Position numbers: made by a program. This document shows, in pieces, positions 60,001-63,000 of a stretch of DNA of 64,000 nt. Position 1 is the stretch's first letter. Each line of letters starts with the position of its first letter. The DNA lies in NCBI RefSeq assembly GCF_056712565.1, contig NZ_CM160072.1, one strand, 5' to 3'.

Positions 60001-63000
60001 GTTGGCGGAGAACAGCAGCTCTTCCGCTTTCGGGTCGTCCATATCCGCCACTACCGCGGTACCACCGGAAAGCTCCAGCGCGGTTTCAAACGACTCGGCA
60101 AGACGTTGGGTAAGATCGTCACGCACTTTGAAGCGATCAACCACCACTTCAATGGTATGTTTCTTTTGCAGTTCCAGTTTCGGCGGATCGGAAAGATCGC
60201 AGACTTCGCCATCAATACGAGCACGGATGTAACCCTGGCTTGCCAGGTTCTCCAGCGTTTTGGTGTGTTCGCCTTTGCGCTCTTTAATGATTGGCGCGAG
60301 CAGCATCAGACGCTTGCCTTCCGGCTGGGACAACACGTTATCCACCATCTGACTGACGGTTTGCGCCGCCAGCGGTACATCGTGGTCCGGGCAGCGCGGC
60401 TCACCAACGCGAGCGTACAGCAGACGCAAATAGTCGTGGATTTCGGTGATTGTCCCCACCGTAGAGCGCGGGTTATGAGACGTCGATTTCTGCTCAATTG
60501 AGATGGCAGGAGAAAGCCCTTCAATATGGTCGACGTCCGGCTTCTCCATCAGTGACAGAAACTGCCGCGCGTAGGCGGAAAGGGATTCAACGTAACGGCG
60601 CTGCCCTTCGGCATATAAGGTGTCGAAAGCGAGCGAGGATTTGCCAGAACCCGAAAGCCCGGTCACGACAATAAGCTTGTCGCGGGGGATAACGAGGTTG
60701 ATGTTTTTGAGATTATGGGTGCGGGCGCCCCGAACTTCGATCTTATCCATTCACCTTTCCCGGATTAAACGCTTTTTTGCCCGGTGGCATGGTGCTACCG
60801 GCGATCACAAACGGTTAATTATGACACAAATTAACCTGAATGAATATACAGTATTGGAATGCATTACCCGGAGTGTTGTGTAACAATGTCTGGCCAGGTT
60901 TGTTTCCCGGAACCGAGGTCACAACATAGTAAAAGCGCTATTGGTAATGGTACAATCGCGCGTTTACACTTATTCAGAACGATTTTTTTCAGGAGACACG
61001 AACATGGCCAGCAGAGGCGTAAACAAGGTTATTCTCGTTGGTAATCTGGGTCAGGACCCGGAAGTACGCTACATGCCAAATGGTGGCGCTGTTGCCAACA
61101 TTACGCTGGCTACTTCCGAATCCTGGCGTGATAAAGCGACCGGCGAGATGAAAGAGCAGACTGAATGGCACCGCGTTGTGCTGTTCGGCAAACTGGCAGA
61201 AGTGGCCAGCGAATATCTGCGTAAAGGTTCTCAGGTTTATATCGAAGGCCAGCTGCGTACCCGCAAATGGACCGATCAATCCGGTCAGGATCGCTATACC
61301 ACAGAAGTCGTGGTGAACGTTGGCGGCACCATGCAGATGCTGGGTGGTCGTCAGGGTGGTGGCGCTCCTGCAGGTGGCAATATCGGTGGTGGTCAGCCGC
61401 AGGGCGGTTGGGGTCAGCCTCAGCAGCCGCAGGGTGGCAATCAGTTCAGCGGCGGCGCGCAGTCTCGCCCGCAGCAGTCCGCTCCGGCAGCGCCGTCTAA
61501 CGAGCCGCCGATGGACTTTGATGACGATATTCCGTTCTGATTTGTCTTTAAAACAATAGGGTATATTGTTTTAAGGTGGATGATTAAAGCATCTGCCAGC
61601 CATAAAAAAGAAGCCTCCGTTATGGAGGCTTCTACATATCAAGTCAAAATCATTGGCCATTGTGGCGGTGTCTGATTCATCTCTTCTATCATCACCGACT
61701 CGATGTTGTGCCAGATGGCGGTGATATCCGCCATTGTGATGCCAAGCAACCCCATTGCGAACCAGCAGGCGGAAACTACGCCCAGACCGCTGCTGATCAC
61801 TGCAAGCCCGACATAATCAGCCCGACGAAAACGGATGTTGAGCGTGCTAGCCAGAAACATCATTACGGCACTAAGAAGTTGCCAGCGAAGAAGAACCACG
61901 CCAGTGGTGAGGGTAGCCATCAAACAATTCCTCGGAAAAGAGCTGATGCCCTGGACAGCGCGGCGTTGTTCACGGGAGGCGTGATACACTCTGGCTATCG
62001 CGGGGCTTGCAGAACACAAAAATGAAACACTCTGTTTGTTTCATGAATTTTGTGAACTATATCACAATTGGTTGTTTGTTAGCCAGATTAGGCCGTGACT
62101 TTTATTGCCGTACAGATTATGTGTTTTTTCAGCGGCATTAAGGGTATATCTTCCCGCCGCCTCTGCATTCCTGAAGGTGATTAATTTTTAAGATCAATGA
62201 ATTATCGTCATCCTGGTGACGATTAAAAAGGTCTCAATTTTATATCAGGCAAAAGTGCTATTTATACCGTAAGATTTATCTAAAGACGTCGGTAGCCAGG
62301 GTTTCACCTTGCAATAACCGGGTATAAACAGGCAGGGAATTGATAGCAATGAGTCATCGTGCACGACACCAATTACTGGCGTTTCCGGGCATTATCTTTT
62401 TAGTTCTCTTTCCCATCATTCTGTCGCTATGGATTGCCTTCTTTTGGGCAAAATCAGAAGTGAATAATCAGCTCCGAACCTTTGCTCAGCTGGCGTTGGA
62501 TAAATCTGAGCTGGTCATTCGTCAGGCAGATTTAGTGAGCGATGCAGCTGAACGCTATCAGGGGCAAGTTTGCACTCCAGCCCATCAAAAGCGAATGTTG
62601 AATATTATTCGTGGCTATCTTTATATTAATGAATTGATTTATGCTCGTGATAACCATTTTTTATGCTCATCGCTGATAGCGTCTGTAAATGGCTATACGA
62701 TTGCACCGGCCGATTATAAGCGCGAACCTAACGTTTCTATCTATTATTACCGTGATACGCCTTTTTTCTCTGGCTATAAAATGACCTACATGCAGCGGGG
62801 AAATTATGTGGCGGTTATCAACCCTCTCTTCTGGAGTGAAGTGATGTCTGATGATCCGACATTGCAATGGGGAGTGTATGATACGGTGACGAAAACCTTT
62901 TTCTCGTTAAGCAACGAGGCCTCGGCAGCAACGTTTTCTCCGCTGATTCATTTGAATGATTTAACCGTACAACGAAATGGCTATTTATATGCGACAGTTT

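Follow-up and report, generated by a model that had tools for sequence, protein, structure and literature searches.

The spacer between the genes yjcB and pdeC of Escherichia coli contains two short inverted repeats, here called IR1 and IR2, and the question raised by this locus is what the repeats do and which of the two genes they serve. A first-pass annotation had read both as possible transcription-factor sites or RNA structures of a long 5' region controlling pdeC. In this study, we report the analysis of the two repeats in a window of 64,000 nucleotides (nt; the whole stretch of DNA analysed) from contig NZ_CM160072.1 of assembly GCF_056712565.1, together with the corresponding loci of related bacteria. 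The locus is an ordinary, largely already-charted divergent promoter region of ordinary core-genome architecture, and it holds one previously undescribed item, the conserved IR1/GTTTCATT element near the yjcB promoter. The reading we favour, with a probability of about 0.4, is that IR1 is a DNA operator for a dimeric regulator that would work with CRP at yjcB.

Conservation of the first repeat

The window is E. coli DNA of the B2 type. The 501 bases round the repeats are 100% identical to E. coli ATCC 11775 and at least 99% identical in 1039 records, and the remaining ~4380 E. coli records are ~94% identical to the window over the same 501 bp. The gene order in the RefSeq annotation is uvrA (minus strand), ssb (plus), yjcB (minus, 93 amino acids (aa)) and pdeC (plus). 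Since RefSeq starts yjcB at 61920 (gene at 61639-61920, minus strand) and pdeC at 62349 (ATG), the spacer between them is 61921-62348 and measures 428 bp; the 329 bp given previously had been built on an over-long yjcB open reading frame (ORF) with a TTG at 62019. Such an N-terminally extended YjcB (126 aa) was ruled out, as the conserved leader has indels whose lengths are not divisible by three and the RefSeq protein is the 93-aa form.

IR1 lies precisely where it was first annotated, at 62022-62044 (minus strand), and consists of the perfectly complementary 8-bp arms ATGAAACA (62022-62029) and TGTTTCAT (62037-62044) separated by N7. IR2, ATCGTCA-N6-TGACGAT, also exists, at 62204-62223 (arms 62204-62210 and 62217-62223, no strand assigned), 2 nt to the right of the 62202-62221 first reported. 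By numbers alone the statistics of the pair are weak, and it is only mildly unusual, because dinucleotide shuffles of the spacer gave a probability of 0.05 for at least one perfect inverted repeat (arm of at least 8, loop of 3-10) and of 0.013-0.019 for two with arms of at least 7, and because such repeats occur over the window at 0.86 per kb (arm of at least 7) or 0.31 per kb (arm of at least 8). IR1 and IR2 are told apart by conservation, not by statistics.

The loci compared were 35 encoding PdeC relatives and eight reached through YjcB homologues, and IR1 was aligned with MAFFT in 29 orthologous sequences from about 11 genera. Conservation in orthologous regions was the check that the first-pass annotation had proposed, and in these 29 sequences IR1 withstood it. 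In Escherichia, Salmonella, Citrobacter, Enterobacter and Silvania, the block AATGAAAC-N9/10-GTTWCAT-N6-TGTGAACTATATCACA, the last element of which is a 16-mer CRP core, is conserved better than any other part of the spacer. The 16-mer is also perfect in Intestinirhabdus, Pseudescherichia, Kosakonia, Trabulsiella and Phytobacter; the IR1 arms are largely kept in these five genera, being impaired in Trabulsiella and mostly lost in Phytobacter.

The constraint on IR1 is concentrated in its promoter-distal arm, the near-invariant octamer GTTTCATT (62021-62028, minus strand; +21 to +28 in yjcB sense), which is identical in 27 of the 29 sequences. Its distance from the CRP core is 22 nt in almost every sequence, a value counted by hand in ten and the window and taken for the rest from the near-gapless alignment, which has a gap in two rows only. 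The other arm drifts (ATGAAAC, ATGTAAC, GTGCAAC, ATGCAAA, ATGAAAT), and most non-Escherichia sequences carry an inner GAAAC copy; Escherichia, with its perfect outer arm, has this copy in degenerate form. The remaining leader is unalignable between distant genera, for example between E. coli and Kosakonia. None of the eight IR1 pairs has changed on both sides, so that there are no compensatory changes; the share of paired cells (85.6%) is what shuffling yields, and covariation scores lower than the mean of the shuffles. Invariance without covariation, amid a leader that otherwise cannot be aligned, suggests sequence-specific recognition of the GTTTCATT arm rather than mere pairing. For the same reason we rank the operator first, an RNA hairpin second, an incidental palindrome third and control of pdeC last.

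The block could also be followed in loci of different gene content. In four genera the place of pdeC, divergent from yjcB, is taken by another gene, namely a PAS-GGDEF gene in Kosakonia and Phytobacter, an unrelated 299-aa gene in Trabulsiella and soxS in Intestinirhabdus, and the IR1/CRP block is kept in all four; the block therefore belongs to yjcB. This stands against the proposal that the repeats control pdeC, which we consider very unlikely. That the spacer is regulatory DNA is supported; the attribution of IR1 to a pdeC leader is not, as IR1 lies inside the yjcB transcript.

Small ORFs starting from the ATGs of IR1 (39 aa on the plus and 24 aa on the minus strand) were rejected, because their frames are broken by indels and are also ended by early stops in other genera, such as ATG-TAA in the C. 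youngae group.

The yjcB promoter and its CRP core

The primary transcription start site (TSS) of yjcB was taken from a published re-analysis of differential RNA sequencing data, which places it at MG1655 position 4275169. This corresponds to window position 62048 on the minus strand, using the yjcB ATG as anchor (MG1655 4275041, window 61920) and there being no indels between the strains in this part. Of the TSS that the same re-analysis found enriched under every antibiotic treatment, this start is one of the three strongest. With the start at 62048, the CRP core is centred at -10.5, the leader is 61921-62048 and IR1 occupies +5 to +27 of the transcript, its centre at +16 being 25.5 bp from that of CRP. 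The 5' untranslated leader past the start base (61921-62047, minus strand) reaches the ATG 128 nt from the start when counted from +1 at 62048.

Upstream of the start lies the extended -10 element TGATATAGT (TGn + TATAGT; 62064 to 62056, minus strand), the final hexamer base of which is 8 nt from the TSS with 7 nt between them. The promoter of yjcB thus has the TGn, the hexamer and the distance to a mapped start of an extended -10 sigma-70 promoter. Its -35 region (62077-62086, minus strand) combines a predicted CTAACA, at a 15-bp spacer, with an invariant CTGG at -38 to -35; the CCAG columns are invariant in the alignment, and other genera have a CTGGCGAATAAA-type block here. Both hexamers are those of the yjcB promoter proposed by Shimada et al. 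(2014), CTAACA-15-TATAGT, who also recorded H-NS in the yjcB-pdeC spacer. A scan of the yjcB-pdeC spacer with the sigma-70 promoter consensus gave no match at the stringency of the scan.

The -10 element lies inside the spacer and a half-site of the CRP core TGTGA-ACTATA-TCACA (TGTGAACTATATCACA; 62051-62066, no strand), which begins six bases right of IR1. The core is perfect and is the sole one in the window, where 0.04 would be expected by chance. Read on the minus strand the 16-mer is TGTGATATAGTTCACA, that is, TGn + TATAGT, the extended -10 itself. The 16-mer is identical or differs by one base in 29/29 sequences and its spacer ACTATA is unchanged in 28/29, an invariance expected if the spacer doubles as the yjcB -10 hexamer. 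One E. coli isolate (3702594) has AATATA in place of ACTATA, at the equivalent of 62057, with the CRP cores intact; its -10 changes from TATAGT to TATATT, nearer to the consensus.

The sequence TGTGA-N6-TCACA is the CRP core, the FNR site being TTGAT-N4-ATCAA. The label 'FNR box' given to TGTGA-N6-TCACA in a Klebsiella paper was accordingly rejected, and a later paper from the same field treats the box as CRP. In the PhyloScan ranking of predicted CRP sites the yjcB site came second or third, and deletion of crp raises yjcB in E. coli at two pH values, as confirmed by quantitative PCR; this rise fits CRP occluding the -10. The site would then work as a repressor site through steric exclusion of RNA polymerase.

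The spacer is a divergent control region whose conserved core serves yjcB, and yjcB is transcribed from 62048 on the minus strand from the extended -10 promoter TGATATAGT. Because the CRP site is built around the -10 hexamer, cAMP-CRP (CRP with cyclic AMP) bound at 62051-62066 would be centred at -10.5 and would keep RNA polymerase out. A putative MarA/SoxS-type box lies upstream. A dimeric regulator on IR1, just downstream of the start and spaced from CRP about as in CytR/CRP complexes, would strengthen the shut-off of yjcB by CRP or set its conditions. That this regulator forms a joint complex with CRP at so unusual a repressing position (CRP at -10.5, partner at +16) is a more specific proposal, and we hold it to be distinctly doubtful; if it is true, yjcB would be a stress gene of a new kind, activated by Mar/Sox and co-repressed by CRP.

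The Mar/Sox input is drawn from published data. A MarA chromatin immunoprecipitation sequencing (ChIP-seq) peak named 'yjcB<>yjcC' is centred at position 4737304 of strain H10407 (window 62041); a second coordinate in the same table, 4737238 (window 61975), is probably the sigma-70 peak. The putative marbox published for the MarA peak, GCAATAAAAGTCACG (62094-62108, minus strand; -46 to -60 of yjcB), is 60 bp from the peak centre, is a weak match to the GCAC-N7-TAAA-like consensus and is poorly conserved outside E. coli. The same paper lists yjcB as a target of SoxS in ChIP with exonuclease treatment (ChIP-exo). At 62075-62086, over the -35 region, other genera read (G/T)CAC-TGGCGAA-TAAA, a sequence closer to the GCAC-N7-TAAA marbox pattern than the box published for E. 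coli (62094-62108). In Intestinirhabdus alba, which lacks pdeC, the gene immediately upstream of yjcB is soxS, which has the same orientation as yjcB and is followed further out by soxR, and the stretch separating soxS from yjcB still contains the CRP/IR1 block. Enterotoxigenic E. coli H10407, in which the MarA ChIP-seq was done, has pdeC annotated as a pseudogene with an internal stop.

Operator, RNA hairpin or incidental palindrome

CytR is the only candidate that could be named for the regulator of IR1, and it is put forward as a lead with no claim of membership. The lead comes from the octamers, a spacing of one turn and a distance of 25 bp to CRP, all of which resemble those of CytR/CRP complexes. 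The paired CRP sites of CytR cassettes lie ~52-53 bp apart, and the 25.5 bp between IR1 and the CRP core is close to half of this. Inspection by eye showed no TGTGA/TCACA pair 48-52 bp to the other side of IR1. The CytR consensus of Sernova and Gelfand consists of inverted octamers, AYGTGCAAC-N10-13-GTTRCATT with CRP, or with spacers of at most 5 nt. Read as AATGAAAC-N9/10-GTTTCATT, IR1 matches GTTGCATT and AATGCAAC at 7 of 8 positions per arm by octamer match, and its arm spacing is 9-10 bp against the published 10-13 bp for CytR with CRP. The inner GAAAC copy offers a short-spacer alternative for a CytR-type site, and the arm variants GTTACAT and GTTGCAC are found in other genera. In a comparison taken as a lead only, none of the sites of Cra, PurR, RbsR, OmpR, PhoP, LexA, ArgR, NsrR and CusR fitted IR1. 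The Cra/RbsR half-sites TGAAAC/GTTTCA do match it, yet those proteins need contiguous half-sites.

A number of points weigh against an operator for CytR or a similar regulator. Both IR1 arms have A/T in place of the central C/G of the CytR TGCAA core, yjcB has one CRP site where a typical CytR cassette has two, and yjcB is unmentioned in the text of the comparative CytR study of Sernova and Gelfand. The literature searched yielded no footprint or ChIP of CRP or CytR at the yjcB site, and the TSS on which the geometry depends comes from one published re-analysis under antibiotic conditions. CRP at -10.5 could also repress alone, with no partner. Finally, IR1 is transcribed, 4 nt from the 5' end, and is predicted to form a hairpin in most species, so that a role as RNA is equally natural.

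As RNA, IR1 would be a small 5' stem-loop shielding yjcB mRNA from 5'-end-dependent decay, and in some lineages the stem may alternate with pairing to the yjcB ribosome-binding region. We rate this explanation as somewhat unlikely. Hairpins at the 5' terminus with no more than ~4 unpaired nt stabilise E. coli mRNAs, ompA being the paradigm, which speaks for it. So does the place of IR1 at +5 to +27 of a mapped transcript: in yjcB sense it forms a hairpin of -6.1 kcal/mol with an 8-bp stem and 4 unpaired nt at the 5' end, and in 21/29 leaders this local hairpin is the partner of the 5' arm in the minimum free energy (MFE) structure (median -5.6 kcal/mol). The inner GAAAC, which is able to pair with the same 3' arm, is moreover usually intact where the outer arm is mismatched; the exceptions are the sequence Ent_wuhou, where it is degenerate, Trabulsiella, where it pairs by wobble only, and Phytobacter, where both copies are lost. 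Against these observations, the stem is weak, AU-rich and no more stable than shuffled sequences (z = -0.6), its central pair is broken in 11/29 sequences and its closing pair in 12/29, one arm is far more constrained than the other, and the lack of compensatory change in eight pairs over 29 sequences, with covariation below the shuffled mean, counts in the same direction. Consensus folding of 18 yjcB leaders with alifold gave a weak consensus with a covariation term of just -0.39.

The pairing with the start-codon region was followed separately. The 5' end of the yjcB mRNA (UCAUGAAACAA, 62034-62046) is complementary to the stretch between the Shine-Dalgarno sequence and the start codon (UUGUUUGAUGG, 61918-61935), which reads UGUUUCAUG in most other genera; the complementarity of the 5' arm to UGUUUCAUG in several lineages is a further point for a role as RNA, and the full-leader MFE structure of the window strain pairs the two. 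The pairing scored z = -2.8 to -4.4 in Salmonella, several Citrobacter species, Intestinirhabdus and the window, and among the 29 leaders it was absent in Enterobacter, Silvania and other Escherichia species, which counts against it. It was rejected as a general mechanism, being real in some lineages only; a switch in the leader, with the 5' arm pairing at times within the local hairpin and at times with the yjcB start codon, is conceivable but doubtful. A GC-rich leader block (GATAGCCAGAGTG ... GCGCTGTCCAGGGC; ~61935-62005, minus strand) occurs in Escherichia, Salmonella, Citrobacter, Silvania, Intestinirhabdus and Trabulsiella and is deleted or replaced in Enterobacter, Kosakonia, Phytobacter and Pseudescherichia. 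Its predicted helices are invariant and not covarying, and its indels are not in threes.

The palindromy of IR1 may also be incidental, its bases being kept for promoter escape, for flanking contacts of CRP or RNA polymerase, or for an RNA motif in GUUUCAUU alone. The lopsided conservation, with an invariant 3' arm and a variable 5' arm, agrees with this, as do a hairpin stability no greater than that of shuffled sequences and a probability of only about 0.05 for an inverted repeat of this kind to arise in the spacer by chance. The complementary arm or the inner GAAAC is nevertheless kept in nearly all 29 sequences, with neighbouring positions free to vary, and we regard an incidental palindrome as improbable.

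The second repeat, pdeC and known systems

Control of pdeC by the repeats has several observations in its favour. In Klebsiella pneumoniae, the identical 16-mer is present at -382 to -367 of yjcC; a Klebsiella yjcC-lacZ fusion loses its activity and its paraquat induction without the distal 140 bp that carry the TGTGA-N6-TCACA box, and the ratio of the crp deletion to the wild type for yjcC is 2.85. On these data pdeC may have a distal promoter or an upstream activator site, and it may have a long leader. In E. coli, pdeC is sigma-S dependent, no pdeC TSS was found in the literature searched, and the only proximal pdeC promoter is a prediction, the simple sigma-70 scan having found none. The predicted promoter is GTTTCA-16-TATAAA (TTTTCA in K-12; 62301-62328, plus strand), which derives from a prediction based on genomic systematic evolution of ligands by exponential enrichment (SELEX) and leaves a leader of ~14 nt; a -10-like TATAAA or CATAAA stands at a similar place in other genera. 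Against control of pdeC, IR1 is upstream of every plausible start in the pdeC direction, and the mid-spacer is unalignable between genera. The long 5' region called structured in the first-pass annotation showed no excess of folding energy, with z = -0.46 for the 291 nt upstream of pdeC and z = -0.73 for the yjcB leader against shuffled sequences, and Rfam gave no match inside 61921-62348 even at E <= 10.

IR2 adds to the evidence against control of pdeC, being unconserved even within E. coli. K-12 has ATTTTCA where the window has ATCGTCA, which breaks the repeat; the exact 40-mer around it was found in only 1039 of 5426 E. coli genomes, and at that place the fetched loci of other Escherichia species and other genera have unrelated sequence with no IR2. 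The comparison that IR1 had withstood was thus lost by IR2, which is a palindrome specific to the B2-type allele and a by-product of a fast-evolving stretch. A terminator scan of the spacer was negative at both IR1 and IR2, and, for IR2 as an intrinsic terminator or attenuator, the plus strand directly past it, TAAAAAGG, lacks the T-run that follows the GC-rich stem of such terminators. The loop of IR2 contains a Dcm site, CCTGG (62212-62216), which is CCAGG in K-12; according to a preprint, yjcB is one of the genes with the largest rise on deletion of dcm (log2 fold change +1.13, weak significance). The spacer of E. coli is dimorphic at 62170-62245, with the B2-type allele in 1039 genomes and the ~94%-identical allele in ~4380; the differences gather around IR2, and divergence in this stretch is well over the typical core-genome level.

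Other features of the region were noted. An imperfect 11-nt inverted repeat, CTATTTATACC (62258-62268) and GGTATAAACAG (62321-62331), has its arms 52 nt apart; the right arm overlies the predicted pdeC -10 (TATAAA), the left arm is kept within Escherichia, and no covariation was seen. A strong GC-rich hairpin of 10 pairs with T-runs at 61609-61633, between ssb and yjcB, is likely a bidirectional terminator; the ssb-yjcB gap is described in the literature as an integration hotspot for defence islands. The distance between yjcB and pdeC is ~2.2 kb instead of ~0.5 kb in many loci of Enterobacter, Lelliottia and Pluralibacter, so something has been inserted between both genes. A contig filed as Flavobacterium paronense CECT 8460 encodes PdeC, YjcB and Ssb 98-100% identical to those of E. 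coli and is probably a contamination of that assembly.

The stakes of these results are modest, and they involve no new class of mechanism. They re-assign a conserved element to its proper gene, yjcB, which encodes an uncharacterised 93-aa inner-membrane protein and is probably antibiotic-induced through Mar/Sox and CRP-repressed, and they provide a neat example of a CRP site that encloses an extended -10 and is intact across about 11 genera. This is useful for dissecting the regulation of yjcB or of pdeC (cyclic di-GMP), with the caution that pdeC promoter fusions also carry the yjcB promoter, the CRP site and IR1.

Among known systems, the CytR/cAMP-CRP complexes of deoP2, udp, cdd and cytR resemble yjcB in having inverted octamers (those of IR1 match at 7 of 8 positions each), an arm spacing of about one turn, a centre-to-centre distance of ~25 bp from CRP, and an orthologous site that is highly conserved despite a weak family consensus; unlike them, yjcB has a single CRP site placed to repress, not to activate, and is no nucleoside gene. 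With CRP-repressed promoters in which CRP covers the -10 or the start, yjcB has in common a perfect core, here at -10.5, and higher expression on deletion of crp, but at yjcB the -10 hexamer and the 6-bp CRP spacer are one and the same, and a half-site gives the TG of the extended -10. The hairpin 4 nt from the mapped 5' end recalls the 5' stem-loops of the ompA type, although that of IR1 is much weaker (-6 kcal/mol), shows no covariation and has an internal mismatch in a third of species. A MarA ChIP-seq peak with a putative marbox, a SoxS ChIP-exo listing and an antibiotic-induced TSS are shared with the promoters of the mar/sox/rob regulon, from which yjcB differs in that its marbox is poorly conserved outside E. 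coli and that other genera carry a different, GCAC-N7-TAAA-like block overlapping the -35 region.

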